From positions 9,479,388-9,499,387 of the forward strand of contig NC_057753.1 in assembly GCF_004010195.1 (NCBI RefSeq): a stretch of 20,000 nt of DNA. Reading direction: 5' to 3'. The notes under the pieces are model-generated. The model worked only from the letters and a program-made list of their open reading frames with translations, did no database searches and was not told where the DNA came from. This document shows positions 240 to 20,000 of this stretch, in pieces. The DNA is from Chiloscyllium plagiosum. Lineage: Eukaryota. The translations under genes and the position numbers were made by a program. Position 1 is the stretch's first letter. Each line of letters starts with the position of its first letter.

Positions 240-450
240 TCATGATTTGGAAATGTGGGTGTTGAACTGGGGTGAACAAGGTTTAAAAAAAAAATCACAA
301 CACCAGGTTATAGTCCAACAGGTTTATTTGGAAGCACTAGCTTTCGGAGCGCTACTCCTTCATCAGGTGATTGTGGAGAATAAGATTGTAAGACACAGAA
401 TTTATAGCAAAAGTTTACAGTGTGATGTAACTAATATATATTGAAAAAGT
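240..450 (-). mobile_element. Penelope-like terminal repeat, family B (hammerhead-bearing)
   Basis: Same repeat as 8581-8705 (opposite strand) and 17478 onward; shares cacaacaccaggttatagtccaacaggttta and contains a hammerhead core. Confidence 0.7.
335..369 (-). ncRNA. Minimal type I hammerhead ribozyme motif (intact core)
   Basis: Minus strand reads cac-CTGATGA-a-ggagt-agc-gctcc-GAAA-gcTA-gtg: conserved core, stem II, palindromic AGCT stem III, 3-bp stem I (cac/gtg). Confidence 0.75.
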
Positions 451-873
451 TTTTGGGGTTATGTTTGGCGTGGACTAGTTGGACGAAGGGTCTGTTTCGG
501 CGCTGTCGGACTGTGCGACTCTATATCTGCAAAGAACCTAGAAATTTAATTCCAGCTTTCAGGGGCACTGAGATATTATGTTATGAGACAGTGTTATAGG
601 TTATCTTTATTAACTCGTTCACCCGCTCGCTATATCCATTAATACCGGATTTCCATTCATTCATAAAACCGCAGTTCTATAGTATCCAAAATTTTAAAAC
701 AACTTTTTCAAACCCATCACTGCATTTCCACACCTTATCAGCCCCTACCACAAGCAGTGTTTACCTCAGCATACAGAACAATACTGTCCCCATCAAGTCT
801 CCACTAAACATTACCTGTTAAATACCTTTTAAAGTATGTCCCTTTAAGAAACTAACTGACAAAATAGCGCTTT

Positions 874-1260
874 CACTGTTTTGATCACACAGCACTGACC
901 CTTGATGTGAAGGGCAGTGCTTGTCACTGGCCACCCGGGTGTTTTCCTATCTTCCTGGTGGTGGAAATTGAATAAAGATTGGTGCACTTTGTGTCTTTCA
1001 CTGTGTCTCACACCTGCACACACACACCATGGGTGCTGGGGATAAAATAAGCACTACCGCACTTAGGGGGTAGTGTGGGGGTTAAAAAAGAAAGGAAAAA
1101 AAAATATATATAAAAAAAAAGTGAAAAAAAAATAAACAGGAGAAACAGGGGAAAAATTTTAAAAAAGGGAAGTGTCACTGCCCTCTAATAAAGAAAAGAA
1201 GAAAAAAAAAGACAAAAAAAAATATAAACAGGAGATTTTTGATTTAGTCCCTACCAAGAA
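874..1260 (+). mobile_element. 5'-truncated non-LTR retroposon 3' end (probably L1/Tx1-type) with A-rich tail and 15-bp target-site duplication
   Basis: acaaaatagcgcttt at 859-873 and 1261-1275; AATAAA at 971-976; hairpin cactacc/ggtagtg at ~1052-1075; A-rich tail 1084-1230. Family assignment is inference. Confidence 0.75.
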
Positions 1261-1498
1261 ACAAAATAGCGCTTTTATGAAATTGCGCGAATGAATGAAG
1301 CTCGTACCGGCAAATAGCAAATAAATCTCACCACCCAGCTGCAGTAATCAGTTTAATATCATTTATTCTATTATTACAATTTTTAACTTCGAGCACATAG
1401 GCCTAGTATTAATATTTTAACATTTACTCATTTAAGTGAAAAGACAAACGAACTAACACCTGATTATGCAAGCAGACTGGTCAGACATCCCATCAGGA

Positions 1499-1701
1499 AT
1501 CCAGATCGGAATGGTGCTGGAAAAGCACAGGAGGTCAGGCAGCCTCCAAGGAGCAGGAAAATTGACTTTTCGGGCAAAAACCCTTCATGAGGAGGGATTT
1601 TCCTGGTCCTCGGAATCTGTCTGACCAGTTATGCTTTTCCAGCACCACTCTAATCTTGACTCTGATCTCCAGCATCTGCAGTCCTCACTTTCATCTAATG
1701 T
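1499..1701. mobile_element. Fold-back Penelope-derived element, family A, with 12-bp target-site duplication
   Basis: Diverged inverted arms (gtgctggaaaagca ... tgcttttccagcac); atcccatcagga at 1487-1498 and 1702-1713; homologous to 6742-6938 and 12678-12900. Confidence 0.8.
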
Positions 1702-1994
1702 ATCCCATCAGGAGTAGCAGCCAGCATTTAGCACGTTTTTAACCCATCTCCTGTCTGCCAGGCCAGAAGTCCTTCAAACCATTGTGTACTACAGATTAAA
1801 AATGTAACACAAGAGTAATGATAAGTAAGAACTGTGTAAAAAGGGGCTCTTGTAAGAACTGTATTTCGGGATTCAATTGCCGCCTCGACCTTGTGCTGTG
1901 AATGCTGAATAAAGAGGCTAATTTCACCACTCACCGATTTCAGTCGTTATTTGAACATGATCCCACACCAGTTTAAAGTTGAGTCAGTTTTGGC

Positions 1995-2110
1995 AGACTG
2001 GCCTTCATCAGTCAGGGCTTTGAGTCTACAAGCTGGGAAGTTATGTTGCAGTTATACAGGATGTTGGTGAGGCCGCACTTGGAGCATTGTGCTCAGTTTT
2101 GGTCACCTTG
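1995..2110 (+). mobile_element. CR1-type ORF2 fragment
   Basis: Translates as AFISQGFESTSWEVMLQLYRMLVRPHLEHCAQFWSP, matching SFIGQSIEYRSWEVMLWLYRTLVRPLLECCVQFWSP in ORF 11779-12120. Confidence 0.85.
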
Positions 2111-2297
2111 GTGTCGTGTGACTTCTGACTTCAACTCTGGGTTTGTGTCAAATTTGATGGGATACTTTATCCAGTTCAGTATATTTAAACAGTATCACTT
2201 GGAGGGAAGCATTTGAAACCTTTCAGGAGGTGAGCTCAACTAGATTGAGCTCTACAAAAAGTTATTTGGACTCAATTTTACACCAGGACTGGTAGTC

Positions 2298-2503
2298 AGA
2301 TGTACAGAACAGAAACAGTTCTGGACTCCCTCACCTCCAAGGAAAATAGTGTTTATCCTATCCATGCCCTTCATGATTTTAGAAGCCTCTATAAGGTCAC
2401 CCCTCAGCCTCTGATGCTCCAGGGAAAACAGCCCCAGTCTGTTCAGCCTCTCCCTGTAGCTCAAACCCTCCAACCCCCAGCAACATCCTGGTAAATCGTT
2501 TCT
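2298..2503 (-). mobile_element. CR1-type LINE 3' fragment with internal deletion
   Basis: ORF EGLSYRERLNRLGLFSLEHQRLRGDLIE, the CR1 ORF2 C-terminal motif. Confidence 0.9.
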
Positions 2504-2668
2504 GATGGAGAAATTAACATTTCGGGTAGAACCCTTCAGTCCTGAACGGATAATACTTGAAATGCTGACTTCTCCACCTCCTGGTGCTGCCTGGCTTGCT
2601 GTGTTCTCCCAGCCTCCTGCTTGTCTACTTCGGATTCCAGCATCCAGAGTTTTTTTTTTGTTTCTAAT
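2504..2668 (+). mobile_element. Penelope-like terminal repeat, diverged family, partly palindromic
   Basis: catttcgggtagaacccttcag followed by ctgaa...gaaatgctgacttctcc; downstream tgctgcctggcttgctgtg...ccagcatc resembles the family A arm. Confidence 0.55.
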
Positions 2669-2796
2669 GAATAGTAGAGCAGGCTCAATGGGCTAAATGG
2701 TGTAACCTCTGCTCCGATGGTCTTGCGGACTTAGGTTTGTGTGAGAACGTGTAGTCCTGGGCTCAATGAGCAGCAATGCCCACTGGAAGCAAAGTT

Positions 2797-3155
2797 CATA
2801 GAATCACAGAAACCCTAAAGTGGAAACAGGCCCTTCGGCCCAACAAGTCCGCACTGATCCTCTGAAGAGTAAACCACCCAGATGCATTCTCCTACTCTAT
2901 TACTCCACATTTCCCCCCTGATTAATGCACCACATCTACACATCCCTCAGCACTATGGGACAATTTAGCTTGGCTAATTCATCCTAACCTGCACATCTTT
3001 GGACTGTGGGAGGAAACTGGAACATCTGGAGGAAATCCACACAGACATGAGGGGCGAACATGCAAACTCCACAGCACTGACTGTCACCCTGAGGGTGGAA
3101 TCGAACCCAGGTCGCTAGCCCCGTGAGACAGCAGTGCTAACCACTGAGCCACCCT
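2797..3155 (-). mobile_element. HE1-like V-SINE (tRNA head, V domain, LINE-derived tail), near full length
   Basis: Minus strand: ggtggctcagtggttagcactgctg (A box), gggttcgattcc (B box), tgtggagtttgcatgtt (V domain), tail ttgggccgaagggcctgtttccac. Confidence 0.9.
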
Positions 3156-3281
3156 TGAGCCAGCTTGGGGTTGGGGGGAGGAGAAGTCTGGCAGAAATCA
3201 AAATAAGACCCACAGACTCTCCCACTACCCCCACCATCAGAATGGGCAGGGGTTCAGTCCTGGCGGCAACCCACAGCAGCA

Positions 3282-3560
3282 TCACCGGGAGTGCTGGTGC
3301 CTCTGCAAGCTGCAGGGGAATGTGAATATTCACCTGCACTCAGGGCAGCTGAACAGCCTCTCCCCAGTGTGGACCTGCTGGTGCCTCAGCAAGTGGGAGG
3401 GACTGTTGAAGGCCTTCCCACACTCGGGGCAGAAGAATGGTCTTTCCCTGGTGATACTGCACCGATAAGACTCCAGAGCAGATGGGTCAAAAAAGCCTCT
3501 CCTGCAGTCACCGCACTTTCACGGTTTCTCCACGGGGCCAGATTCTTCGGGTTTCTCCAT
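3282..3560 (-). pseudogene. C2H2 zinc-finger pseudogene (3 fingers), paralog of 15753-16889
   Basis: Manual translation: [91 protein letters not shown]-to-stop at 3519-3521, second internal stop, lost His ligands. Confidence 0.9.
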
Positions 3561-3809
3561 GGCCGAAGCTTCAGCCGCCACACAAACACATGTACCGTCT
3601 CTCCCTGCCGTGAATTCCTCTTTCCAGGCTATATACCTGTTTCAGGCTCCACACTCAGTGCACTGCAACAGTAGGGTCTCTCATCCAGTCCCATTGATGC
3701 GGAAAATGTACTCAAACAGGAACCAAAAAGCTTTGCTCCTTCTCACAGAATCACAGTCAAAAATCACTGCAGTCCCAGTGTCCCAATGTCACTGTCAGAC
3801 ATTGATGTG

Positions 3810-3930
3810 AAAGTGAGGACTGTAGATGCTGGAGAGTCAGTCTAAACGTGTGGCACTTTTCCAGCACAACAGGTCAGGCAGCGTCCGAGGACCAAGAGAG
3901 TCGATGTTTCGGGCATAAACACTTCATCTG
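3810..3930 (-). mobile_element. Single family A Penelope-like arm, shared with the paralogous locus at 15388-15510
   Basis: aaagtgaggactgtagatgctggag...caggtcaggcagc...gtttcgggcataaacacttcatctg; identical flanking context in both copies. Confidence 0.75.
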
Positions 3931-4046
3931 TTGATTTTGAATCTCTCTCTCTCTCCCCCTCTAATTCTCCTGAAGGTGCTGATGCAGAATCTTACAAAAG
4001 GCAGCAAAGTAAAAACGTCAGGACTGCCATCTCTGAATTTTAGGTA

Positions 4047-4568
4047 AAAACAATGATTGCAGATGCTGGAAACCAGATTCTGGATCAGTGGTGCTGGAAG
4101 AGCACAGCAGTTCAGGCAGCAACCAAGGAGCAGCGAAATCGACATTTCAGGCAAAAGCCCTTCATCAGGAATAAAGGCAGAGAGCCTGAAGCGTGGAGAT
4201 AAGCTAGAGGAGGGTGGGGATGGGTAGGGGAGAAAGTAGCATAGAGTACAATAGGTGAATGGGGGAGGGGATGAAGGTGATAGGAGAGGGTGGAATGGAT
4301 AGGTGGAAAAGGAGATAGGCAGGTAGGACAAGTCTGGACAAGTCATGGGGACAGTGCTGAGCTGGAAGTTTGGAACTAGGGTGAGGTGGGGGAAGGGGAA
4401 ATGAGGAAACTGTTGAAGTCCACATTGATGCCCTGGGGTTGAAGTGTTCCGAGGTGGAAGATGAGGCGTTCTTCCTCCAGGTGTCTGGTGGTGAGGGAGC
4501 GGTGGTGAAGGAGGCCCAGGACCTCCATGTACTTGGCAGAGTGGGAGGGGGAGTTGAAATGTTGGGCC
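4047..4568 (-). mobile_element. 5'-truncated Penelope-like retroelement: GIY-YIG endonuclease C-terminus, 3' UTR and hammerhead-bearing repeat
   Basis: AQHFNSPSHS...LEEERLIFHLGTLQPQGINVDFNSF fits the PLE ORF C-terminus; hammerhead core at ~4138-4172; segment absent from the paralog at ~15119. Confidence 0.85.
4138..4172 (-). ncRNA. Minimal hammerhead ribozyme motif (family A)
   Basis: Minus strand: attc-CTGATGA-a-gggc-tttt-gcct-GAAA-tGTC-gat. Confidence 0.65.
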
Positions 4569-4759
4569 AACTCCACCTGAAAGTTAATATCTTTCATGAC
4601 ATTGGGATACTGCTGAGAGTGAGCAGTGCACCTTCTTGAGAAACAACTAGACATAAAATGGTTAACGTCCCTGGGGGTTGGTGAATGAGACATCAAGGCA
4701 TTGACACCAACACCAGAGAGCAACTGAATATACAGACGTGGCAAACATTGGTGGCAGGC

Positions 4760-5345
4760 TAGAGTTATAGAGATATACAACACAGAAACAGTCCCTTTGG
4801 TCAAACTTGACCATGCCGACCAGATATCCGAACCTAATTTGGCCCTAATTTGCCAGCATTTGGCCCATATCCCTCTGAGCCCTTCCTATTCATTTACCGA
4901 TCCAGATGCCTTTTAAATGTCAGAATTGCACCAGCCTGCATTACTTCTTCTGGCAGCTCATTCCTTACATGCACCACCTTCTGCATGAAAATGTTGCCCC
5001 TTGACTCCCTTTTAAATCTTTGCCCCCCTCACGCTAAACATATTACCCTCTAGTTCTGGACATCCGCCATTCCAGGGAAAAGACCTTGTCTGTCTACCCT
5101 ATCCATGCCAGTCATGATTTTATAACTGTGTATCAGGTCACCTTGCAGCTTCCGGCGCACTAGTGAAAACAGCTCAAACCCTGAAACCCTGGTAACATCC
5201 TTGTCAATCTTTTCTGAACCCTTTCAAGTTTCACAACATCGTCCTGATAGGAGGGAGACCAGAACTGCACATAATATTCCAAAAGTGGCCTAACCAATGT
5301 TCTGTGCAGCCACAACACAACCTCCCAACTCCTATACTCAAAGGA
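4760..5345 (-). mobile_element. CR1/HER1-type LINE 3' end, decayed
   Basis: Reverse-complement similarity to 9055-9572 and direct similarity to 11450-12050. Confidence 0.9.
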
Positions 5346-5444
5346 TTGGGAAAGTTTTCAAAGCCCACAAAAGACAACAGGAAAGAATGGAGGGACAAGC
5401 TGAACTGTTGAGGGTCAGCTTGGAAGTATCAATGCCTGAGGGCA

Positions 5445-5496
5445 GGGGGTGGGGTGGGGTGGGGTGGGGTGGGGTGGGGTGGGGGTGGGGGTGGGG
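5445..5496 (+). repeat. (GGGGT)n microsatellite, G-quadruplex-capable
   Basis: About ten G4-5 runs separated by single T. Confidence 0.95.
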
Positions 5497-5534
5497 AAGG
5501 AAGCCAAATGTGCTGGAGCCAGGGGGAAAACAAG

Positions 5535-5827
5535 AAATTAGAATGCCTGCAATGTGGAAACAGACCCTTCAGCCCCACATGTCCACACCGACCCTCCGAA
5601 GTGTATTCCACTCAAACCCAGTCCCCTACCCTAGGACTCTACATTTACTCCTAACTAACCCATCCTGAACACTATGGACAACTTAGCACGGCCAATTCAC
5701 CCTAACCTGCACACACTGGGAGAATGTAGAAACTCCACACAGACAGAGTCACCTGAGGCTGGAATCGAATCCGGGTCCCTGGCGCTGTGAGGCAGTAGTG
5801 CTAACCACTGAGCCACCACGCCTTCCC
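5535..5827 (-). mobile_element. HE1-like V-SINE with internal deletion
   Basis: Same head (ggtggctcagtggttagcact) and tail as 2797-3155. Confidence 0.9.
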
Positions 5828-6002
5828 TTTCCATTCCCTACCAAGTCACATAGCTCAAGTTCAAGCAAAGCACTGTGTTTAATTTTAGCTTCACATTCAC
5901 TGAACCTTCCTCCCGTGTAATACACTATTTCCCTCCCCTACCTCATCCCTGGGAAATGCAAAGAGTTGTGAAACTCTGGAGCTGGGTGACTGCCACATTG
6001 AA

Positions 6003-6340
6003 TTCTTACAGTGCGGGAACAGGCCATTTGGCCTAACAGGTCCACACAAACCCTCCAAAGAGTAACCTGCCCACACCTATTCCCTTACCACTCGACACTT
6101 ACCCCTGATTAACGCACCCACCCTGCACACTCATGGGCATTTAGCATGGCCAATACATCCTAACCTGCACATCTTTGGATTATGGGAGGAAACTGGAGAA
6201 CCTGGAAGAAACCCACACAGACATGGTGGGGGGGGGTAGAACGTGCAAACTCCACACAGACAGTCGCCCCAAGGAATTGATTCCGGGTCCCTGACGCTGT
6301 GAGGCAGCAATGCTAACCACTGAGCCATGGTGCTGCCCCT
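6003..6340 (-). mobile_element. HE1-like V-SINE, near full length
   Basis: Minus strand gggcagcaccatggctcagtggttagcattgctgcctcacagcg, V domain and tail. Confidence 0.9.
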
Positions 6341-6741
6341 ATGTGCTGGAAGAGGTGGAGGCTGGGACCTCTATTGACTGTACCGCACAATGAATTGTTG
6401 AATAAGGTTAAATCGCATGCGATCCGGGGAGAGCTCGTCAACTGGGTACAAAATTTAGGAGCGCATTGCTACAGATGCTGGAATCTCTCCTGAAAACAAC
6501 AAATGCTGGAGATCACAGCGGGTCAGGCAGCGTCTGTTAGGTTCTTTTTTGGAGTTTCTCACACACTTGACGCCATTGCAACACCAACTTCTGTGAACAA
6601 GCAACCAAATGCATTAAACACAGTACAGTACAGGCTTTCTGGAGGCACCTTTAATGGGGTCATGGCAAAAGCTCTCTCTGAACAAAGGAAACAATTCAAG
6701 TTGATTAAAACTTGGGCAATCTAGGTGACCCCCCCTTTGAT

Positions 6742-6938
6742 GAGAAAGTGAGGACTGCAGATGCTGGAGATCAGAGCTGAAAATGTGTTGCTGGAAAAGC
6801 GCAGCAGGTCTTGCAGCATCCAGGGAACAGGAGAATCGACGTTTCGGGCAAGGGCTTATGCCCGAAACGTCGATTCTCCTGTTCCTTGGATGCTGCCTGA
6901 CCTGCTGCGCTTTTCCAGCAACACATTTTCAGCTCTGA
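6742..6938. mobile_element. Young fold-back Penelope-derived element, family A, with ~16-bp target-site duplication
   Basis: 80-bp inverted arms 6771-6850 and 6859-6938 with 3 mismatches; tga(c)7-8tttgat at 6726-6741 and 6936-6952. Confidence 0.9.
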
Positions 6939-7467
6939 CCCCCCCCTTTGATCCCCATCACAGGCATGTGAGGTTGAGTCAAAGTGAGGCACTCAACAAA
7001 GAAAGCTTATCCCCTTTATCCAGGTCAGTTGCAATGCCCTGATACACTGGCCACTCCCCCACAGTCACATGCTTCTTAAGACAATCCCCAGTTACTCACA
7101 GTCACATGGTACCCCAGGTACAATGGCAGGATGAGCTCATCCTCTGAGTTAACGCTCATGCTAATGCCCCAATCCTGGGGAATCGTTAAACAGATGACTT
7201 CCTTACTCAGTGATTTCCCCAAGACAATGAAGGTATGAGATACCTCTGGCCAGAAAGCATTTCTGAATGAAAGAGATTGAATTGATGGTTAACTTGACAA
7301 TAGCAGGGGAGGAATGTCGAAATGAAGTGCAAATTACAATGGATAGTCATCAGCATTCTTTCATGGCTGTGTCCCCACCCAAAAACAGTGCAGTTTAACG
7401 CTCTAATAGTACATTAATGTACAGAGAGATATTCCTATTTAATCTTTTAACATCACACATCCACACA

Positions 7468-7512
7468 GACAGAGCAAGCTAACATTTCAAGTCCAGATAA
7501 CTCTTCGTCATA
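7468..7512 (-). mobile_element. Decayed hammerhead-bearing Penelope-like fragment, family C
   Basis: Minus strand: tgacga-agagt-tatctgg-actt-gaaa-tgttagc. Confidence 0.45.
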
Positions 7513-7961
7513 GAGATGTATAAAGTCATGGGAGGTGTACATAAGATGAATGGCAGGGGCTTTTCCCTGTGCTGAAACCTTAACACCTTACTGAAATGCA
7601 TATACACCAAATCTTTACGCTCATCCACCTGTTTCATCACCTTCTCAAAAGAACTCAGTAAGGTTTGAGAGGCACGAACTACCCTTCACAAAACTGTGTT
7701 GAATATCCCTAATCAACTTTTTCCTCTCTAGATGATGATTATAAACCCTATCTCTTATAATCCCAACCAAAGTAAGGTTCACAGATATATACTCCCCTTC
7801 TTGAACAAGTGAACAACATCAGCTATCCTTCAGTTCTCTAGCACTATTCCTGTAGACAATGATGACAAAGACTCAACAATCTCCTCCATGGCTTCCCACA
7901 GAACCAGAGGATAAATTCCATCTGGCCCAGGGGACTTATTGTTAACACCTCCTCCATTTGT

Positions 7962-8193
7962 GGGCAGCACAGTGGCACAGTGGTTAGCACTGCTGCCTCA
8001 CAGCGCCAGAGACCCGGGTTCAATTCCCACCTCAGGCAACTGTGTGGAGTTTGCATGTTCTCCCAATGTCTGCGTGGGTTTCCTCCGGGTGCTCCGGTTT
8101 CCTCCCACAGTCCAAAAACATGCAGGTTAGGTGAATTGGCCATGCTAAATTACCCGTAGTGTTAGGTGTAGGGGAATGGGTCTGGGTGGGTTG
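7962..8193 (+). mobile_element. HE1-like V-SINE lacking its 3' tail, nested in the LINE
   Basis: gggcagcacagtggcacagtggttagcactgctgcctcacagcgccagagacccgggttcaattccc, V domain; LINE sequence resumes at ~8194. Confidence 0.9.
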
Positions 8194-8580
8194 CACTTCA
8201 ATCCCAACTAGTCTAGCAGCATATATCTCAGTATTCTCCTCGACTACGTTGTATATTTCCAGTGTGAATACTGATGAAAAGTTTTCATTTAACACTTCCC
8301 CTCTCTCCTCTGACTCCACACATAACTTCCCACTACTATGCTTGATTGGCCCTAATCTTACTCTCGTCATTCTTTCATTCCTGATATAGCTATAGAAAAC
8401 CTTAGGGTTTTCCTTTATCCTATCCGCCAATGACTTCTCACATCCCCTCCTGGCTCTTCTTAGCTCTCTCTTTAGTTCTTTCCTGGCTAACTTGTAACTC
8501 TCAAGCACCCTAAATGAGCCATTATATCTCATCCTAACAAAAGCCTTCTTTCTCTTGCCAAGAGATTCAACTTCCTTAGC

Positions 8581-8705
8581 AGGTGATGAAGGAGCGTCGC
8601 TCCGAAAGCTAGTGTGCTTCCAATTAAACCTGTTGGACTATAACCTGGTGTTGTGTGATTTTTAACTTTGTACACCCCAGTCCAACACCGGCATCTCCGA
8701 ATCAT
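8581..8705 (+). mobile_element. Penelope-like terminal repeat, family B, starting at the hammerhead core
   Basis: gTGATGA-a-ggagc-gtc-gctcc-GAAA-gcTA-gtg then cttccaattaaacctgttggactataacctggtgttgtg; reverse complement of 240-370. Confidence 0.75.
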
Positions 8706-9053
8706 TCTAAATCTTGCACAATTGCATTGTAATTGCCTTACTATAACTCATGCCCTGCGGTATATACCTATCCCTTTCCATCACTAAAGTAAACATAACT
8801 GAATTGTGGTCACTATCACCAAAGTGCTCACCTATCTCCAAACCTGGCCGGGTTCATTCCCCAGTATCAAATCTAATGTGGCCTTGCCCCTTGTTGGCCT
8901 ATCTATATACTGTGTCAGGAAACCCTCCTGCACATCCTTCCTCAAACATCCTCAAACATCCTTCCTGCAACCGTAATACTGTCCTTGACTAACAATGCCA
9001 TACCACCCCGTCTTTCACCATATTCTCTGTTCTTATGGAAACATCTTAAGTCC

Positions 9054-9572
9054 TTCAACTATTGGAAAGATGTTGTGAAACTTGAAAGGGTTCAGAAAAG
9101 ATTTACAAGGATATTGCCAAGGTTGGAGGATCTGAGGTACAGGGAGAGGCTGAACAGGCTGGGGCTGTTTTCTCTGGAGCGTCGGAGGCTGAAGGGTGAC
9201 TTTATGGAGGTTTACAAAATTATGAGGGGCATGGATAGGATAAATAGACAAAGTCTTTTCCCTGGGGTCGGGGAGTCCAGAACTAGAGGACATAGGTTTA
9301 GGGTGAGAGGGGAAAGACATAAAAGAGACCAAAGGGGCAACTTTTTCACGCAGAGGGTGGTACGTGTATGGAATGAGCTGCCAGAGGATGTGGTGGAGGC
9401 TGGTACAATTGCAACATTTAAGAGGCATTTGGATGGGTATATGAATAGGAAGGGTTTGGAGGGATATGGGCTGGGCGCTGGTAGGTGGGACTAGGTTGGG
9501 TTGGGATATTTGGTCGGCATGGACAGGTTGGACCGAAGGGTCTGTTTCCATGCTGTACATCTCTATGACTCT
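9054..9572 (+). mobile_element. Younger 5'-truncated CR1/HER1 insertion, ORF2 C-terminus still open, complete 3' tail
   Basis: Uninterrupted KDVVKLERVQKRFTRILP...GNFFTQRVVRVWNELP...FKRHLD...GRWD* ending at 9494; tail ctctatgactct. Confidence 0.92.
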
Positions 9573-11217
9573 AACCTGTTAAAACCATTCCTGTCCCTAC
9601 TCTACCGATGTCTCTAAAATGGCCATAACATTGAAATCCCAGGTATCAAACTATGCTGCAAGTTCACCCACCTTATTCCAGATGCTCCTGACGTTGACAT
9701 AGACACATTTCAAACCAATTTCTTGCCTGCCGCTGCCTTATCATAATCTTGAAGTCTTAGTTCTGACTTCACTCCTCTCATTCTCCCGTATACTCAAACT
9801 ACAATTTTGGTTCCCATTCCCCTGCTGAATTAGTTTAAACCCAGCCAAAGAGCATTAGCAAATATTCCCCCATCATCCCAGGATATTGGTGCCCCTCAGG
9901 TTCAGATGAAGACCATCCTGTTTGTCAAGGTCCCACCTACTCCAGAAAGAGCCCCAATTATCCAGGAATCCAAAACCCTCCCTCCTGCACCATCCCTGTA
10001 GCCATGTGTTCAACTCTTCTCTCCCTGTTCCTCACTTTGCTGGCATGTGGCATGGGCAACAAACCAGAGATAAAAACTGTTTGTTTGAGCTCTAAGCTTC
10101 AAGCCTAAGCTCCCTGAATTTCTGCTTTAAGTCCCCATCTCTCTACCTACCTATGAAGTTGATGTCTATGTGGACCACAACTTGTGCTGCTCCCCCTCAA
10201 GGATCCTGAAAAACATGATCAGAGACATCACAAACCCTGGCACCTGGGAGGCAACACACCAACCATGTGTCTCTCCCGTTCCCACAGAACCTCCTATCTG
10301 TCCACCTAACTATGAAGTCCCCAGTGACTAATGCTCTGCTCCTCTTCTCTTCTCTTCTGAGCAACAGGAACAGACTCTATGCCAGAGAGCTGTGCCCCAT
10401 AACTTACTAGGGTAAGCAATCTCCCCCAACAGTATCCAAACAGTATACATTGTTGTTCAGGGGAACGGCCACAGGCGATCCCTGCACTGCCTGCTGGTTC
10501 CCTTTCTGTCCCCTAACAGTAATCCATCTGCCACCTTCTTTTACCTGAGGTGTGACGACCTCCCTGTAACTCCTCTCAATGATCAGAAGTTCATCCAGCT
10601 CCAGCTCCAGTTCCACTTCCCCAACACAGTTTTCGAGGAGCTGGAGAAGGGTTCACGTCCCCCAGATGCTGTCAACAGGGACACTACTGGTGACCCTTAC
10701 CTACCACATTCTGCAGGAGGAACATTCAACTGCCCTCACCTCCATTCCCACTGTTCTAAATCATCAACAAGACTACTGAAATACTAAAGAAAAAGATACC
10801 AGTCACCTTACCAATTGGCACACAGAACCTTTGTTTTTGATTGGAAGAGGACTATGGGTGGGAGATACTACCCGAGTAGTGTCACTTACACTTCAGCAGG
10901 GGGATGGGAACCAAAATTGTAGTTTGAGTATACGGGAGAATGAGAGTAGTAAAGTCAGAACTAAGATTTCAAGATTGTGATAAGGCAGTGGTAGGCAAGC
11001 CTCACTTACCCAGCAGTCCTGTGTCTGCTCCTGCTCAGTGTGCGCTCCACCTATACACAAGGCAAACCTTTTTATCTTTTAAAATTTAACTTGCCGTCAG
11101 GCCTCTGGTACTTGCTGTCACTCCTCCCACTCCAACTGCCACCAAAAGCAAAAAAACTGAAGAACGCTAAACTCCCGAAGTAAGCTTTTATATCTTTTTA
11201 AATTTACCTTCCTGTCA

Positions 11218-11396
11218 TGGAGACCAAGTCATTGAGGGCATTTGAGACAGAGATATGTTCTTGATTAGTAAGGGGATCAAGGGTTAGGAAGAGAAGGCAG
11301 CAGAATGGGGTTAAGAAACATATCAGTCACAATTGACTGGTGGAGCAGACTCGATGGGCCAAATGGTCTCATTCTGCTCCTGTGTATTACGGTCTG
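11218..11396 (+). mobile_element. 3' end of a second CR1-clade LINE family
   Basis: ggagcagactcgatgggccaaatggtctcattctgctcc terminal hairpin; related fragment at 2675-2725. Confidence 0.6.
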
Positions 11397-11449
11397 AAAA
11401 CTGGCAGATTACTGAAGTGGTTTTCACAAACAATTTCAGAGTCCTGAAA

Positions 11450-13927
11450 AAGAGTCATAGAGTCACAAATGTACAACACAGAAACACACCCTTCAGTCCA
11501 ACTCAACCATGACAAACAGTTATCCTGACCTAATCTGGTCCCATTTGCCTGGCCATAGCCCTCTAAACCCTTCCGATTCATGTGCCCATCCAGATGCCTT
11601 TTAAATGCTGTAATTTTATCAGCCTCCACCACTTCCTCTGGCAGCTTATTCCACACACACACACCACCCTCTGCGTGAAATAGTTGCCCCTGAGGTACCT
11701 TTTAAATCTTCTCCCTCACCCTAAACTTACTCCCTCTATTTCTGGACTCCCCGACCCCAGGGAAAAGACTTTGTCTATTTATCCTATCCATGCCCCTCGT
11801 GATTTTGTAAACCTCCCTAAGGTCACCCTCCGCCTCTGATGCTCCCAGGATAACAGCCCCAGTCTATTCAGCCTCTCCCTTTTGCACAAATCCTCCGACG
11901 CTGGCAACATCCTTGTAAATCTTTTCTGAATCCTTTCAAATTTCACAACATCCTTTCGATAGGAAGGAGACCAGAATTGCACGCAACATTCCAAAAGTGG
12001 CCTAACCAATGTCCTGTACAGCCACAACATGACTTCCCAACTCCTATACTCGATGCTCTGACCAATAAAGGAAAACATACCAAATACCTTCCTCACTATC
12101 CTTTCGACCTGTGACTCCACTTTTAACTAACTATGAACCTGCACTCCAATGTCTCTGTTAAGCAACACTCCCTAGGACCTTACCATTAAGTGTATAAGTC
12201 CTGCTTGGATTTGTTTTTCCAAAATGCAGCACCTCACATTTATCTGAATTAAACTCCATCTGCCACTCCTCAGCCCATTGACCCACCTGATTACCTGTTG
12301 TAATCTGAGGTAACCTTCTTCCCTGTCCACTGCACCTCCAATTTTGGTGTCATCTGCAAATTTACTAACTATACCTTTTATGCTCAGATTGAAATCATTT
12401 ATATATGACAAAAAAGTAGTGGACCCAGCACTGATCCTTGTGGCACTCCACTGGTCAAAGGTGTCCAGTCTGAAAAACAACCCTCCACTACCACCCTCTG
12501 TCTTCTACCTTAGAACCAGTTCTGTATCCAAATGGCTAGTTCTCTCTGTATTTCATGAGATCTAACCTTGCTAACTGTGTCCCACGGAGAACCTTGTCGA
12601 ACACCTTACTGAAGTCCATATAGATCACGTCCACCGCTCTGCTCTCAATGCTCTTTGTTACTTTTTCAAGAAACTCAGTGTTGAGAGTTTGGTGCTGGAA
12701 AAGTACTGCAGGTCAGGCCACATCCGAGGAGCTGGAGAATCAATGTTTCAGGCTTCAGCCCTTCATCAGGAATAAGAATGAAGTGCATATGCCCAAAACG
12801 TTGATTCTCCTGCTCCTCGGATGCAGCTTGATCTGCTGTGCTTTTCCAGTACCACTCTAATCTAGACTCTGACCTCCAGCATCTGCAGTCCTCACTTCCT
12901 CCTTTCAAAACCCGCAATCAAATTGATGAGACATAACATGATTTCCCACGCACAAAGCCATGCTGACTATCTCTAATCAATCCTTGCCTGTCCAAATATG
13001 TATAAATCCTGTCCCTCAGGATACCCTCCAAAAACTTGCCCACCGATGTCAGGCTCACCGATCTATAGTTCCCTGGCAATTCCTTACACCTTTCTTCAGT
13101 AGTGGTACCACGTTAACCAACCTCCAGTCTTCCGGCATCCCTCCTGTGACTATCAATGATACAAATATCTCAGCAAGGGGCCCAGCAATCACTTCCCTAG
13201 CTTCCCACAGTGTTAGGGTACCCCTGATCAGGTCCTGGGGATTTATCCATCTTTACCTGTTTCAAGACATCCAGCACCTGCTCCTCTATAATAAGGAAAT
13301 CTTTCAAGATGTCACCATCTATTTCCCCACATTCTACAGTATATTTTCCATGCCCTTCTCCACAGTAAACACTGATGCGAAATACTCGCTCAGTATCTCC
13401 CCCATCTCCTGTGGCTCCAAACAAAGGCAGAATTTCGAGGGGCCCTATTCTCTCCGTAGTTACCCTTTTGCCCTTAATGTATTTATAAAAGCCTTTTGGA
13501 TTCTCCATAACTCTATTTGCCAAAGCTATCTCATGTCCGCTTTTCACACTCCTGATTTCCCTCTTAAGTATGCTCCTACTGCCTTTATAGTACAGGGATT
13601 CACTCAATTTCTTTCATCTGTACTTTTTACATGCTTCCTTCTTTTTGTTAACCAAAACCTCAACTTCTCTAGTCATCCAGCATTCCCTAAACCTACCAGC
13701 CTTTCCTTTCACCCGAACAGGAATATACTGTCTCTGAACTCTCATTATCTAATTTTTGAAGGCTTCCATTTTCCAGCCATCCCTTTACCTGCGAACATCT
13801 GTTCCCAAGCAGCTTTCATAAAATTCTTGCCTAATACCATTAAACTTTCCTTGCTCCAATGTAAAACCTCAGCCTTTAGATCTGGCCTATCCTTTTCCAT
13901 CACTATTTTAAAACTAATAGAATTATG
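11450..13927 (-). mobile_element. CR1/HER1-type LINE ORF2 (reverse transcriptase) and 3' tail, frameshifted, running into the gap
   Basis: [24 protein letters not shown] (RT catalytic motif, ~12340-12410), LYRTLVRPLLECCVQFWSP, DKSPGPD, ENPKGFYKYIKGKR. Confidence 0.95.
12678..12900. mobile_element. Fold-back Penelope-derived element, family A, inside the LINE RT region
   Basis: Inverted arms ggtgctggaaaag ... cttttccagtacc; minus-strand core CTGATGA-agggc-tgaa-gcct-GAAA at ~12740-12772; degenerate duplication tttcaagaaactca / tttcaaaacccgca. Confidence 0.8.
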
Positions 13928-14427
13928 NNNNNNNNNNNNNNNNNNNNNNNNNNNNNNNNNNNNNNNNNNNNNNNNNNNNNNNNNNNNNNNNNNNNNNNNN
14001 NNNNNNNNNNNNNNNNNNNNNNNNNNNNNNNNNNNNNNNNNNNNNNNNNNNNNNNNNNNNNNNNNNNNNNNNNNNNNNNNNNNNNNNNNNNNNNNNNNNN
14101 NNNNNNNNNNNNNNNNNNNNNNNNNNNNNNNNNNNNNNNNNNNNNNNNNNNNNNNNNNNNNNNNNNNNNNNNNNNNNNNNNNNNNNNNNNNNNNNNNNNN
14201 NNNNNNNNNNNNNNNNNNNNNNNNNNNNNNNNNNNNNNNNNNNNNNNNNNNNNNNNNNNNNNNNNNNNNNNNNNNNNNNNNNNNNNNNNNNNNNNNNNNN
14301 NNNNNNNNNNNNNNNNNNNNNNNNNNNNNNNNNNNNNNNNNNNNNNNNNNNNNNNNNNNNNNNNNNNNNNNNNNNNNNNNNNNNNNNNNNNNNNNNNNNN
14401 NNNNNNNNNNNNNNNNNNNNNNNNNNN
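13928..14427. other. Assembly gap (500 N)
   Basis: Run of N; the round length suggests a placeholder size. Confidence 1.
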
Positions 14428-14830
14428 ATGGATAGGGTCAAGAAACAAGGACTTTTCTTTGGGATGGGGGCAGTCCAGAACTCAAGGTTAATATGTTTAG
14501 GGAGAGATGTAAAAGAGACCTCAGGGGCAAGTGTGTGGTGTGTGTATAGGATCAGCTGCCAGAGGAAGTGGTGGAGGATGGTACACTTACAACAGTTAAA
14601 GGGCATTTGGATGGCCATATGAGTACATAGAGATGTACAGCACAGAAACAGACCCTTCAGTCCAATTTGTTCATGCTGACCAGATAGCTAACCCAATTTA
14701 GTCCCACCTGCCAGCACATGGCCCACATAGGAGCCAAGTAATGGCGAATATGACTAGATTAATTTAGGATATCTGGTCAGCTTGGACAAGTTGGGCCAAA
14801 GGATCTGTTTCGGTACTGTACGATGCTAAT
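14428..14830 (+). mobile_element. CR1-type 3' end with an antisense CR1 tail nested at ~14625-14728
   Basis: Similarity to 9232-9572; the nested part matches the reverse complement of the same tail. Confidence 0.8.
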
Positions 14831-15335
14831 CGTTCTTCGATGAATGCAGAACTGTGGTTGTGAAGACTGAACTTTCACAGCAGATTTCAAGAATGTTTTG
14901 CCCTTACTGGGAGCAGAAGAGCTTGACTGAAGTGTGTCGGTGTTAATGCCTTGATGTTTCATTTTGCTCCCACCTTCCTGAGGACATTGACCATTTTGTG
15001 TCTGGTTGTTCCTCAAGACGCTGAATTGCCACACTTTGTTTTTTGCTTCCCAAAATCAGACCTGCTCACTCTCAGCAGTAGCCCAGTGTTGTGAAAGACA
15101 TTAACTTTCAGGTGGAGTTATCCAAAATTCAGAGAGATGTCAGTTTTGACGGTTTTGCTTTTCTGCCCCTGTAAGATCCTGAATTAGCATCTTCAGGAGA
15201 ATTAGTTAGAGCGGAGTGAGAACAGAGGGGGAGAGAGTTCTTTCAATTTTGTGGAATAAGAAAAGAAAAGAAGGTTCCGCAGAAAGTAGAATTGCTCGTT
15301 CTGAATTTCTACCCTGGACTGAGAGACTTGTGAAA

Positions 15336-15348
15336 TCTCTTTTTGCAG
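15336..15348 (+). promoter_or_regulatory. Candidate splice acceptor for the zinc-finger coding exon
   Basis: tctctttttgcag: pyrimidine tract plus CAG, ~400 nt upstream of the ATG. Not verified by transcript data. Confidence 0.45.
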
Positions 15349-15387
15349 AATATTTGAAGATCTGAAGACAGAAATTTCAAAATGAAC

Positions 15388-15510
15388 AGATGAAGGGCTT
15401 TGCCCGAAATATTGACTCTCCTGCTCATTGGATGCTGCCTGACCTGCTGTGCTTTTCCAGCGTTGCACTTTTCGATACTGACTCTCCAGTGTCTGCAGTT
15501 CTCACTTTCA
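15388..15510 (+). mobile_element. Single family A Penelope-like arm with altered hammerhead core
   Basis: cAGATGA-a-gggc-ttt-gccc-GAAA-tattgactctcctgctc...gatgctgcctgacctgctgtgcttttccagc. Confidence 0.75.
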
Positions 15511-15752
15511 CGTCAATGGCTGACAGTCACTCGATTCATCGGGAGCGCAATGGTTTTCAACTGATTCTGTGAGAAAGAGCAAAGCTTTTTGGTTCCTGTT
15601 TCAGTACATTTTCAGCGTCAGTGGGTCTGGATGAGAGACCCTACTGTTGCAGCGCACTGAGTTGGAGAGTGTAACAGCTGTACAGCCTGGCAAGAGGAAT
15701 TCACGGGAGGGAGGGCCTGTACACGCATTTGTGTGCAGCTGAGGCTTCGGCC

Positions 15753-16889
15753 ATGGCGAAACCCGAGGAATCCCGGCCAGTGGAGAAACCATGGAAGTGC
15801 GGTGACTGTGGGAAAGGCTTTTGTGCCCCATCTGCCCTGGAAACTCATCGGCGCAGCCACACTGGGGAGAGACCATTCTCCTGCCCCGTCTGCAGGAAGG
15901 GCTTCAGTAGTTCCTCTGCCGTGCTGACCCACCGGCGGGTCCACACGGGGGAGAGGCCCTTCAGCTGCCCTGAGTGTAGGAAGGGCTTCAGCAATTCCTC
16001 CTCCCTGCTGAGGCACCGGCGGGTCCACACAGGGGAGAGGCCCTTCAGCTGCCCCAAGTGCGGGAAGGCCTTCAGCGATTCCTCCACACTGCTGAAGCAC
16101 CAGCGGGTTCACACCAGGGAAAGGCCCTTCAGCTGCCCCGAGTGCGGGAAGTGTTTGACCCAGGCCTCTGACCTGCTGACCCACCAGCGGGTCCACACAG
16201 GGGAGAGACCCTTCACCTGCCCCGAGTGCAGGAAGGGCTTCAGCAATTCTTCTGACCTGCTGAAGCACCAGCGTGTCCATACGGGAGAGAGGCCCTTCAG
16301 CTGCCCCGAGTGCGGGAAGGCTTTCAGTGATTCCTCTGCCCTGCTGAGGCACCGACGGGTCCATACAGGGGAAAGGCCCTTCAGCTGCCCTGAGTGCGGG
16401 AAGGCTTTCAGCAATTCCTCTGACCTGCTGACCCACCGGCGGGTCCACACAGGGGAGAGGCCGTTCTCCTGCCCTGAGTGTGGGAAGGCATTCATCAATT
16501 CCTCCAACTTGCTGACCCACCGGTGGATCCACACCAGTGAGTGGCCCTTCAGCTGCGTCATATGCGGGAAGACCTTCAGGAATTCCTCCACCCTGCTGAG
16601 ACACCGGCTGGTCCACACAGGCGAGAGACCTTTCAGCTGCCCTGAGTGCGGGAAGGCCTTCAGCGATTCTTCCACCCTCCTGAGGCACCGGCGGGTCCAC
16701 ACGGGGGAGAGGCCGTTCCCCTGTGTCGACTGCGGGAAGGCCTTCAGCAACTCCTTCAACCTGCGGACCCACCGGCAGCTGCACACAGGGGAGAGGCCGT
16801 TCACGTGCTCTCAGTGCGGGAAGGGCTTCACCCGTGCCTTCCACCTACGGAGCCACCAGCGAGTGCATGTGCCATCACTCGGGGATTGA
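15753..16889 (+). CDS. Tandem C2H2 (Kruppel-type) zinc-finger protein, 378 aa, 13 fingers, no effector domain in this exon
   Basis: ATG in good Kozak context (gccATGG); 13 CxxC-x12-HxxxH units mostly joined by TGERP; all zinc ligands intact; in-frame TAA upstream at 15672-15674; TGA at 16887-16889. Confidence 0.93.
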   Translation: MAKPEESRPVEKPWKCGDCGKGFCAPSALETHRRSHTGERPFSCPVCRKGFSSSSAVLTHRRVHTGERPFSCPECRKGFSNSSSLLRHRRVHTGERPFSCPKCGKAFSDSSTLLKHQRVHTRERPFSCPECGKCLTQASDLLTHQRVHTGERPFTCPECRKGFSNSSDLLKHQRVHTGERPFSCPECGKAFSDSSALLRHRRVHTGERPFSCPECGKAFSNSSDLLTHRRVHTGERPFSCPECGKAFINSSNLLTHRWIHTSEWPFSCVICGKTFRNSSTLLRHRLVHTGERPFSCPECGKAFSDSSTLLRHRRVHTGERPFPCVDCGKAFSNSFNLRTHRQLHTGERPFTCSQCGKGFTRAFHLRSHQRVHVPSLGD

Positions 16890-17198
16890 AGGAGTGCCGT
16901 TATGAACTGGAAATTCCACCTCGTTCTGGGGATTCCTGTGTTTGAATCCCAATACAGCAGATGGCGGAATTGGAATTTGGTTAGAAATCTGGAGTTAGAA
17001 TCTAATTATGAAACTATTTTCACGGGGGGTGTGGATCCAATTACAAAGGGGTAACTCGGTGACCAATAGTAAAGAAAGTGAGGTTTGGGGGGGGGGGGTT
17101 AGGGAGTGTGCGCGCTTTAACCTTGATGTTTAAAAAGCAGCTACTTTTTCTATGCCTTTTCGCTGGGGGGATCTGAAGCTGTAACAAAGTTGGATCAC

Positions 17199-17204
17199 AA
17201 TAAA
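17199..17204 (+). terminator. Candidate polyadenylation signal of the zinc-finger gene
   Basis: AATAAA ~310 nt after the stop; ATTAAA at 17239-17244. Confidence 0.35.
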
Positions 17205-17477
17205 GGTTATCTCAACTTACCACCGGGCTCAGACTCTCATTAAAGGCTTTGTGCCCCAAGGGGTTTTGTTTTAAAGCTGGTCATTTCTTTCAGCCTCCAG
17301 CACTAAGTTTCCAATGTCACTTATCAGATGGAACAGTGAATGAATAGCTAGTATCGTTAGAAATTGTAAATTTTTCAGGAGTGCAAAGTGTGTTGTTTCC
17401 TTGGCATGCTAAAGTGTAACGGCAGCTCCGGAGATGTGCGCTGTGTTCACTAGAAACTGTGGAAGTTTCTAGTGTAT

Positions 17478-18150
17478 CGGACTTGGGTGGATAAAGTTAA
17501 AATCACACAACACCAGGTTATAGTCCAACTGGTTTATGTGGAAGCACTAACTTTCGGAATGCTGCTCCTTCATTGGGTAGCTGTGGAGCAGGATCATAAG
17601 ACACAGATTTATCGCAAAAGATCACAGTGTCATGAAACTGAGAGGATATATTGAACAAACCTAGATTGCTGTTAAGTCTTTAATCTTTTAGAGTGGGTTG
17701 CAGATTTTGGTTCATTAATATGTAAATCCCAGAACATCTTTTAAGTCACATTCTCGAGATCACTTAAGGTTTTATATACAAAAAAGTGACATCTCAGCTC
17801 AGACAATGCATTAAAGGTGTGTGGTTCAAGTCTCAGTATCCCAATCATGAATCAGACTGGTTCTATTTCCAAAGTAGGAATTTATAAAATAGCACATGGA
17901 TTGACTGCCTGCAGACTGTGTGCTTTTTGAAGAAAATTGAACGTATCTGCAAATATAATTCTGCCAATACAAATTATCTCCATAGAGTTATGTGTGTGTG
18001 TGTGTGCATGAGAGAATGTGGTTGTGTGCATGTGAGTTTGTGCGTGAGAGTGCACGTAAGAATGTGTGCATTCTTGGTAAATTGTGAGTGTAATGGAGTA
18101 TATGTGTGTTTGTGAGAGAGAGCATGTGTATGAGAGAGGTATGAATAAAC
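17478..18150 (-). mobile_element. Longer family B Penelope-like 3' region with decayed hammerhead and degenerate (TG)n
   Basis: 17478-17660 aligns to 255-450; decayed core at ~17545-17578; TG-rich tract 17990-18140. Confidence 0.65.
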
Positions 18151-19824: not shown

Positions 19825-20000
19825 ATGGCGCCGTGCGGCCCGGGGCAGACACCCGCCACTGGGCACCGCCGCCTTCCTGGCGCAGCTGCTGTGTCACGCC
19901 CACACCGGCCGGCTGTACAGCAGCCAGGAGCCGGTGAGCATTCTGGAGGCGGAGGGGGTTAAGGGCCTGTTTGGGAACTCGTCGGCCGCCTGGGTGGTGG
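19825..20000 (+). CDS. QSOX1: Quiescin sulfhydryl oxidase, exon 1 (partial; signal peptide and start of thioredoxin domain), with apparent frameshift
   Basis: Frame including 19916 reads LGTAAFLAQLLCHAHTGRLYSSQEPVSILEAEGVKGLFGNSSAAWVV. This aligns without gaps to recalled QSOX1 LYSPSDPLTLLQADTVRGAVLGSRSAWAVEF, just before the WCGHC motif; NSSAAW also resembles QSOX2, so the paralog call is tentative. Confidence 0.8.

Follow-up and report, generated by a model that had tools for sequence, protein, structure and literature searches.

Minimal type I hammerhead ribozymes were described in 2014 in the pseudo-LTRs (pLTRs) of metazoan Penelope-like elements (PLEs), with reported counts of about 4,000 in coelacanth and 9,000 in Xenopus (Cervera and De la Pena 2014, PMC4209133). 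The consulted sections of PMC3846280 and PMC8557442 characterize PLE insertions by 5' truncation, an inverted pLTR, a 30-40 bp tail and a target duplication. In the green anole, the Poseidon element PAc carries a hammerhead in its pLTR; according to the accessible part of PMC11167929, the uncleaved RNA is the insertion substrate and no RNA ends were seen at the cut site. Papers on the whale shark note a Penelope expansion, and their available portions do not mention hammerheads. A search of openly accessible papers and preprint texts found no published shark case of a Penelope hammerhead.

The 20,000-nucleotide stretch of Chiloscyllium plagiosum DNA analysed here (the window) is a shark example of these known Penelope minimal hammerheads, and its arrangement is ordinary for PLEs as far as the consulted parts of PMC4209133 describe them. 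It shares with those motifs the core, the extra base between 9 and 10.1, the G10.1-C11.1 pair, the palindromic 15.2-16.2, the short helix I, several families per genome, and mostly single truncated copies with pairs on opposite strands; the difference is that no shark was found in the portions of that text and supplement examined. Judged from this window, the hammerhead load of the shark looks higher than the coelacanth and Xenopus counts. One longer fold-back arm, a head-to-head junction and target duplications are shared with endonuclease-positive PLEs in the accessible parts of PMC3846280 and PMC8557442, whereas the shark inserts measure only about 150-230 bp and their duplications 14 nt, compared with 8-10 nt in the rotifer examples. 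The pLTR hammerhead is likewise common to PAc, but PAc is a Poseidon element, while the protein relatives of family A have a Neptune-type linker; furthermore, PAc comes with biochemistry (PMC11167929, part consulted), whereas the shark copies are known here from sequence alone. Non-LTR retrozymes, in the available excerpts of PMC7229834 and bioRxiv 10.64898/2026.07.22.740005, also combine a type I hammerhead with short pLTR-related repeats, but they form tandem arrays, whereas the shark copies are dispersed or inverted. We consider it very probable that the sites in the window are hammerhead-bearing 3' ends (pLTR plus tail) of several families of endonuclease-positive Penelope-like retrotransposons, of Neptune type in the case of family A.

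The original prediction listed eleven hammerhead sites at a density of about one per 2 kb. All eleven coordinates correspond to a hammerhead core or a recognisable remnant, and the density is borne out at 11 per 19,500 non-N bases, or one per 1.77 kb. The bare CTGANGA..GAAA pattern alone is at chance level (4 matches in the window against 1.68 expected; at least 4 in 20 of 200 shuffles). A structured descriptor was not limited to the core: it also asks for a 4-bp stem II with G first, pairing of the 15.2-16.2 dinucleotide, U16.1-H17, and a single pair in stem I. It gave 2, 4, 7 and 11 matches in the window at 0, 1, 2 and 3 deviations; the corresponding means in 25 dinucleotide shuffles were 0, 0, 0.2 and 2.9 and the maxima 0, 0, 1 and 8. 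At 3 deviations the descriptor admits chance, and 2 of its 11 matches lie outside the listed sites. With G-U pairs allowed, only 335 and 4138 show no deviation, and only 335 is textbook-perfect because 4138 has a G-U at 10.1-11.1 and ATGT in stem III. One deviation was found at 12740 and 7478, two at 8584, 15388 and 17545, three at 6851 and 1560, and more than three at 3900 and 2515-2570; nine of the eleven sites are damaged, by CpG decay or by cuts inside the core. The copy at 3805-3930 lies within a 79% identical inverted paralogous block and shares its junctions with 15389-15512, the insertion having been duplicated together with a zinc-finger gene flank. Since 3900 and 15388 are one insertion event, the list comprises ten independent insertions. 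Two sites, 2515-2570 and 6851-6872, each consist of two head-to-head arms, and a decayed copy at 12778-12810(+) was absent from the list. With boundaries set by us, PLE-end pieces make up about 14% of the window (Table 1). The hammerhead motifs in the window are real and abundant. An Rfam search of the window returned 15 matches at E<=10, with no hammerhead among them. A twelfth candidate at 1990-2012(-) was rejected as coding sequence inside an open frame of a LINE-type repeat, which we take to be CR1 and which has three further copies in the window (66-72% identity).

Table 1. Penelope-like features in the window (positions are those of the whole stretch).
Feature	Position	Strand	Remarks
PLE-end copy of family B, reaching upstream beyond its hammerhead	242-450	-	81-90% identical to 8584 and 17474 copies
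Intact minimal type I hammerhead, family B	335-369	-	0 deviations; predicted cut between 338 and 337; stem II GGAG/CTCC plus U-G, stem III AGCT, stem I CAC/GTG
Family A fold-back	1501-1701	.	Minus arm: decayed hammerhead 1560-1592; plus arm 1596-1701 carries tail; target duplication 1487-1500/1702-1715, 14 nt, 1 mismatch
Fourth type (GGGT/ACCC), head-to-head decayed hammerheads	2508-2660	.	Short minus arm, long plus arm; 3 core bases missing from each hammerhead; 65-75% similarity of plus arm to family A; weak 10-nt target duplication with 1 mismatch
Family A stub, damaged core and stem II	3805-3930	-	Same insertion as 15389-15512
5'-truncated Penelope-like element	4042-4569	-	GIY-YIG C-terminus, purine/pyrimidine-rich UTR, hammerhead, pLTR end
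Family A hammerhead, intact core	4137-4172	-	0 deviations; predicted cut between 4141 and 4140
Last 64 residues, PLE RT/GIY-YIG protein	4379-4570	-	67%/72% identity to P0001/P0002
Family A-related pLTR-end piece without hammerhead, not in the original list	6461-6540	-	70% to 15431-15498, 2586-2644
Young family A fold-back	6743-6938	.	Arms 94% complementary; minus arm carries tail; target duplication 6728-6741/6939-6952, 14 nt, 1 mismatch
Family C singleton, stem II GAGT/ACTT, C3 missing	7455-7512	-	1 deviation; boundaries uncertain
Family B stub, starts one base into core	8584-8705	+	2 deviations; family B alignment
Family A fold-back	12675-12900	.	12738-12773(-) core intact, stem III broken; 12778-12810(+) decayed; plus arm carries tail; target duplication not clean, 6 nt only
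Family A stub, paralog of 3805-3930	15389-15512	+	2 deviations
Family B copy, decayed core at 17545-17578	17474-17658	-	Homology to 242-450 copy reaches 17658

The stem II types originally reported, GGGC/GCCC, GGAGC/GCTCC and GAGT/ACTT, are all present, and a fourth, GGGT/ACCC, occurs at 2515. Pairing in stem II is kept between families as had been claimed: the third pair is G-C in family A and A-T in family B, and the fourth is C-G in A, G-C in B and T-A in C and the 2515 type. In all 13 tabulated copies stem II opens with G (partner C in nine, T in four), and these copies display one unpaired base between 9 and 10.1 plus G10.1-C11.1. There is no helix III and 15.2-16.2 is palindromic; the predicted palindromic stem III reads AGCT at 335 and 8584, ACGT at 6850 and 12778, and is present in CpG-decayed forms at the remaining copies. 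The exchange of ACGT for AGCT is compensated between the few families compared. The core CUGANGA plus GAAA, with U16.1-H17, is intact at 335, 4138 and 12740 and damaged at the other eight sites. In the stretch spanning stems II and III, six family A copies show 13 differences, 12 of them of the CpG type, and two such changes produced G-U pairs in the hammerhead at 4137-4172; stem damage is mostly CpG decay. The predicted cuts, after GUC in family A and after CUA in family B, agree with standard numbering. Lunse and colleagues reportedly described dimer cleavage of PLE hammerhead variants in 2017. In neither intact copy is the double-hammerhead register the lowest-energy dimer (-14.5 vs -22.7 and -3.8 vs -17.3 kcal/mol), so that the folding models lend activity no support.

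Family A belongs to an RT/GIY-YIG element, and its copies are 5'-truncated. The ORF remnant at 4379-4570 (tblastn E 7e-31), a GIY-YIG C-terminus about 210 bp upstream of the 4138 hammerhead, matches P0001 and P0002, which are Chiloscyllium RT/GIY-YIG proteins; a Pfam search with the remnant alone gave 0 families. A single ORF with RT and C-terminal GIY-YIG is seen in P0001 and in homologs of 850-950 aa, the window holding the last 64 residues only; matches to RVT_1 and GIY-YIG are below the Pfam cut-off in P0001 and above it in P0022. The CX2-5CxxC linker, assigned to Neptune/Nematis in the consulted part of PMC8557442, was found in 76 of the 79 fetched proteins with a YxGxT motif (93 proteins in all); P0001 has it and P0002 does not. 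Judged by this linker in its protein relatives, family A is probably of Neptune type, although Nematis shares the linker. The empty site of the 4042-4569 insert is present in the paralog near 15.1 kb and in contigs that join 4041 to 4569/4571. No full pLTR-ORF-pLTR partial tandem occurs in the window; this lowers the case for an autonomous copy, not that for derivation from a PLE.

The assignment of all the motifs to minimal type I PLE hammerheads holds for family A, through its GIY-YIG remnant, and for the 2515 family, through 65-70% downstream similarity. For families B and C it is putative: the pLTR location is seen for family A, and no ORF was found for B or C in the window, where tblastn of P0001/P0002 was significant only at 4255-4570. 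The window has no second copy of family C. A TG-rich stretch reaching to about 18150 may be the UTR of the family B copy at 17474-17658.

The window contains 5' truncation, an inverted pLTR, a one-sided tail and target duplication, and some copies are fold-backs in which one side bears a tail and target duplications flank the insert. One arm is about 25-30 nt longer in all three family A fold-backs. Target duplications of 14 nt flank two of the four fold-backs; among 13 candidate inserts examined, two have clean duplications, and there is none at 4042-4569. Neither arm of 6743-6938 has CUGANGA, because both start inside the hammerhead. In the fold-back at 1501-1701, the plus arm (1596-1701) begins where the cut is predicted. 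We rejected this start as a cleavage footprint and ascribe it to chance, because it is one arm of 16 and organism A reads show no pile at the cut site; the loose end at 4137 in these reads is another subfamily's sequence.

Organism A shares only 0.27 of the window's words and may thus be a relative. At 4144 and 4149 its majority letters re-establish Watson-Crick pairing (68% of summed depth in run X1, 71-79% of raw reads in X21), and among the 40 listed of 83 differences in the family reads none falls inside the core. The commonest of the listed loose ends in each of four runs is 4172, four bases before the core (603, 322, 173 and 88 records; agreement 0.33-0.54), which is the hammerhead's front edge and not its cut site. 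One subfamily is roughly estimated at 40,000-70,000 copies. In the DNA-type runs, summed depth at the ORF 3' end and at the hammerhead end was 1.4-3.4 M vs 2.0-4.0 M (X1) and 1.0-1.5 M vs 1.3-2.5 M (X2). The copies had been called mostly non-autonomous; this is right for truncated dead copies, but a separate non-autonomous family is not demonstrated, because the two depths are of the same order. No RNA dataset is listed as carrying the window stretch, and the raw RNA run consists of fragmented poly(A) single-cell data, which cannot show cut ends.

The exact 22-base family A pattern had 0 matches in metagenome contigs, and a generic pattern occurred at at least 120 loci. By blastn, none of the 120 loci listed is similar to the window at E<1e-4; they therefore inform on the motif class rather than on the shark families. 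Among their 102 distinct motifs, pairing beyond the searched pattern was found in 66 for stem I and 70 for outer stem II, compared with shuffled means of 20 and 22; 0 of 2000 shuffles reached the observed values. An ORF hit was obtained in 16 of the 120 listed loci, and in all 16 the PLE ORF is on the motif's strand.

That the motifs are chance matches in repeat-rich DNA would fit the chance-level bare core and the look-alike in LINE-type coding sequence. The probability of this is next to nil: the structured descriptor found 7 motifs against 0.2 in shuffles, they sit at the same place in homologous repeats, and their pairs are compensated between families. Chance has already been ruled out for families A and B and for the 2515 type; family C is represented by one copy. 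It is unlikely that the ~130-nt units form a SINE-like non-autonomous family of their own, in which solo-pLTR RNA would start at the hammerhead front edge and use the PLE protein in trans. The 4172 loose end speaks for it, as do 11 of 14 hammerhead-bearing arms in the window, whose starts, by eye, fall in the interval from a few bases ahead of C3 to stem II, and the excess of pLTR over ORF end, roughly 4- to 20-fold, in RNA-type runs. However, the start points in the window are ragged, several lying inside the core; three of the 14 arms continue upstream, one into the ORF; and in X1 and X2 the ORF end is covered nearly as deeply as the pLTR. In addition, the loose-end consensus opens with the same four letters in three of four runs, so that some of the pile may come from other subfamilies whose upstream UTR differs.

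Retrozymes, which originate from pLTRs, have been reported in one chondrichthyan (bioRxiv 10.64898/2026.07.22.740005, accessible part), yet we regard it as highly improbable that the copies descend, as monomers, from non-LTR retrozymes that propagate via circular RNA cut by hammerheads. The lack of tandem arrays argues against it, the hammerhead unit occurring in 0 of 14 tandem-repeat rows of the window; the copies run across the cut site instead of starting or ending there; and the retrozymes in the consulted part of PMC7229834 have canonical hammerheads in 150-450 bp tandems, whereas the window motifs are minimal. It is also very unlikely that some dispersed copies are active, host-relevant ribozymes cutting their host transcripts. 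Cores are intact at two of the eleven sites, 4138 and 3900 are on one strand, 240 nt from each other, with complementary stem III words (ATGT/ACAT), and RNA reads cover both strands of the pLTR. Against this, minimal hammerheads showed no activity as monomers and only weak activity as dimers (PMC4209133), the hammerhead of the anole PLE depended on protein (PMC11167929), both according to the parts consulted, and no cleavage was seen in 8 of 9 Xenopus dimers in the portion available; the predicted fold of 3890-4180 has no dimer, and the fold-backs are predicted to form hairpins of -41 to -164 kcal/mol.

Under the preferred reading, that of PLE 3' ends, and following published PLE work, the PLE protein would nick DNA and begin reverse transcription of its own RNA some 100 nt downstream of the hammerhead; the majority of cDNAs would end near the hammerhead's front edge, and some would turn back and build the inverted arm. 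The minimal hammerhead of the parent element, with no stable stem III, would need to dimerise or to be assisted by protein in order to cleave, and its role may be the trimming of multimeric transcripts. Cleavage is not needed for insertion, because 14 arms in the window run across the cut site. The dispersed copies would be fossils, most of them not working ribozymes because they are solitary, opposite-stranded, mutated or, in fold-backs, buried in long hairpins.

More tentatively, this shark group might hold at least 100,000 intact minimal hammerheads, most of them within ~130-nt units that have their 5' end fixed by the front edge, a possibility that we regard as doubtful. It starts from 2 intact motifs per 19.5 kb (Poisson 95% 0.24-7.2), the subfamily copy number and the 4172 pile. 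Either a short pLTR RNA would start at the front edge, or the protein-bound ribozyme would block reverse transcription there. Such a number would be at least 10 times that published for coelacanth and Xenopus and similar to the 120,000 canonical hammerheads of axolotl.

These results extend a known hammerhead class to a shark and assist the annotation of a sizeable share of repeats. With copies in the tens of thousands, a genome is a natural record of reverse-transcription stop points, and the preliminary front-edge signal is in line with the in vitro finding that uncleaved RNA serves as template. The fold-backs may have more importance as long intronic double-stranded RNA than they have as ribozymes.

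All 11 hammerhead sites of the original prediction were found in the window, with corrections, and their claimed spacing of about one per 2 kb is within the window one per 1.77 kb; one family A copy, at 12778(+), had been overlooked. The bare core pattern matches only at chance level (4 matches vs 1.68 expected; 4 were reached in 20 of 200 shuffles). A clear excess over the shuffles appears once stems are added to the core: this structured descriptor gave 2, 4 and 7 matches at 0, 1 and 2 deviations, compared to 0, 0 and 0.2 in 25 shuffles, and 11 matches at 3 deviations compared to 2.9. The zero-deviation sites are 335 and 4138 or, without G-U substitutions, 335 only. An Rfam search of the window did not have the hammerhead among its matches.

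Hammerhead families and other features of the window (window positions)
Feature	Position	Strand	Description
Family A	1560, 3900, 4138, 6851, 12740, 15388, 12778(+)		stem II GGGC/GCCC, stem III ACGT
Family B	335, 8584, 17545		stem II GGAGC/GCTCC, stem III AGCT
2515 pair	2515		stem II GGGT/ACCC; downstream 65-75% like family A
7478	7478		stem II GAGT/ACTT; singleton in window
Fold-back	1501-1701		target duplication 14 nt, one mismatch
Fold-back	6743-6938		target duplication 14 nt, one mismatch
Assembly gap	13928-14427		500 N
C2H2 zinc-finger exon	15753-16886	+	open, 378 codons, 13 C2H2 zinc-finger matches
CpG-rich exon	19862-20000	+	best PDB matches all sulfhydryl oxidase QSOX1, E 0.04-0.33

The prediction that stem II differs between families yet keeps pairing was borne out, as a comparison of stem pairs showed base pairs compensated across families. 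All family A copies have ~100 nt downstream of the hammerhead in common. Of the differences in the stem II-III stretch of six copies, 12 of 13 are CpG-type; the damage is therefore ordinary decay after insertion. Besides these repeats the window contains LINE and SINE remnants, one C2H2 zinc-finger exon and, at its right end, a CpG-rich exon, probably exon 1 of a QSOX gene. The closest named proteins are those of Chiloscyllium punctatum.

The assignment to Penelope-like elements (PLEs) holds for family A, which is tied to a PLE ORF, but not to the same extent for families B and C, for which an ORF was looked for in the window and none was found. The stretch 4379-4570(-) encodes 64 residues with 67% and 72% identity to P0001 and P0002, Penelope-like proteins from Chiloscyllium, and hammerhead 4138 lies ~210 bp past the stop codon of this ORF remnant. 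P0001 has RVT_1 and GIY-YIG matches, both under the Pfam cut-offs; in its relative P0022 both are above them. The longer relatives of P0001 (n=91) have mostly 850-950 aa. YxGxT occurs in 79 of 93 fetched proteins, 76 of which also have the CX2-5CxxC linker, described as a mark of Neptune and Nematis (PMC8557442).

As an outside check, a generic hammerhead motif search of metagenome contigs returned at least 120 loci. Among the matches listed, pairing outside the searched pattern, in stem I and outer stem II, was formed in 66/102 and 70/102 distinct motifs, compared to shuffle means of 20 and 22. A PLE ORF match was present in 16 of the 120 loci listed, always on the motif's strand and with the motif downstream in 14; none of these 120 was similar to the window. 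One metagenome contig has identical minimal hammerheads (loci L075 and L076, at ~3.9 kb and ~8.9 kb) ~5 kb apart around a PLE ORF, and holds a complete pLTR-ORF-pLTR element (pLTR, pseudo-LTR).

Head-to-head fold-backs occur at four sites of the window, and one arm is ~25-30 nt longer in all three of family A. They resemble the described PLE insertion pattern of inverted pLTR, tail and target duplication (PMC3846280, PMC8557442). In the 11 of 13 candidate inserts other than the two tabulated fold-backs, candidate target duplications were ≤11 nt and were not counted. These data show truncated PLE ends, some of them fold-backs, and decay at CpG. The predicted cut position is crossed by the copies in 14 arms; the start of the plus arm at 1596, which coincides with it, was considered as a cleavage footprint but is a single case and was taken as chance. 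None of the window's tandem repeats contains a hammerhead. An inverted repeat unrelated to the hammerhead families (9722-9829 and 10892-10999; 108 nt, 94% complementary, 1062 nt between) was also seen.

The insertions can be ordered by means of two paralogous blocks. The segments 3290-4640(-) and 15060-16020(+) are paralogous in inverted orientation and align at 79% over 662 columns. These blocks comprise the first repeats and upstream flank of a C2H2 zinc-finger gene, the copy at 3.3 kb being a truncated remnant. The stubs 3900 and 15388 have both junctions in common and represent a single insertion, which is older than the block duplication. The paralog 15060-16020 lacks 4042-4569 and thus represents the empty site of that insertion, which is most likely younger than the duplication. 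Contigs of organism A, the source of the sequencing runs, join 4041 to 4569 or 4571, an empty site there as well.

Four runs were compared with 3790-4600 at 80% likeness; of the window's words, a fraction of 0.27 occurs in organism A, possibly a relative. From the DNA-type run X1, 71,515 contigs were placed on this region. Their summed depth reaches 2.0-4.0 million in the pLTR and 1.4-3.4 million at the ORF end, compared to 640 just outside. Summed depth is not copy number; division by the depth near 60 at four single-contig joints (others 17-280) gives a rough 40,000-70,000 copies of the 4138-type subfamily. The majority letters re-form stems II and III at 4144 and 4149 (68% each), 3919 (84%) and 3921 (92%), and no core position is among the 40 differences listed of 83. 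Among the loose ends listed (2081 more exist), the commonest in each of the four runs is 4172, four bases before C3; part of this pile may be other subfamilies. RNA ends formed no pile among those listed, although a pile would not be visible in this type of library. A joint from 3840 to 4087, skipping 246 bases, was seen in 85 reads of the raw RNA run X21 and one X17 contig and was absent from X1 and the other DNA-type run, X2; it may be another subfamily copy mapping over both stubs.

Folding models, which leave out tertiary contacts and protein, placed the double-hammerhead register above the best dimer by 8 (335) and 13 (4138) kcal/mol and predicted the fold-backs as hairpins (-41 to -164 kcal/mol). 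In these models the activity of the window hammerheads finds no support. In 3890-4180(-), two same-strand family A hammerheads lie 240 nt apart, with complementary decayed stem III words (ATGT/ACAT). This is the only spot in the window that could allow a dimer in cis; its predicted fold did not form one. Minimal hammerheads have been reported as inactive monomers and weak dimers (PMC4209133). In an anole PLE, hammerhead mutants still inserted normally and cleavage required protein (PMC11167929).

The window hammerheads are like the minimal hammerheads described in 2014 in motif, in the presence of several families and in the occurrence of solo copies and opposite-strand pairs; that description gives ~4,000 copies for coelacanth and ~9,000 for Xenopus (PMC4209133). 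A Penelope expansion is reported for whale shark introns (10.1101/443036), and PLEs and retrozymes across vertebrates, including one chondrichthyan, in a 2026 preprint (bioRxiv 10.64898/2026.07.22.740005). No published shark PLE hammerheads were found in the literature searched, and the preprint's supplements may name shark families. The present case is a shark instance of the already known PLE minimal hammerheads. Judging from the literature, reverse transcription would begin downstream of the hammerhead, with uncleaved RNA as the template. This is best read as a ribozyme at the service of the parent element, the dispersed copies being passengers.
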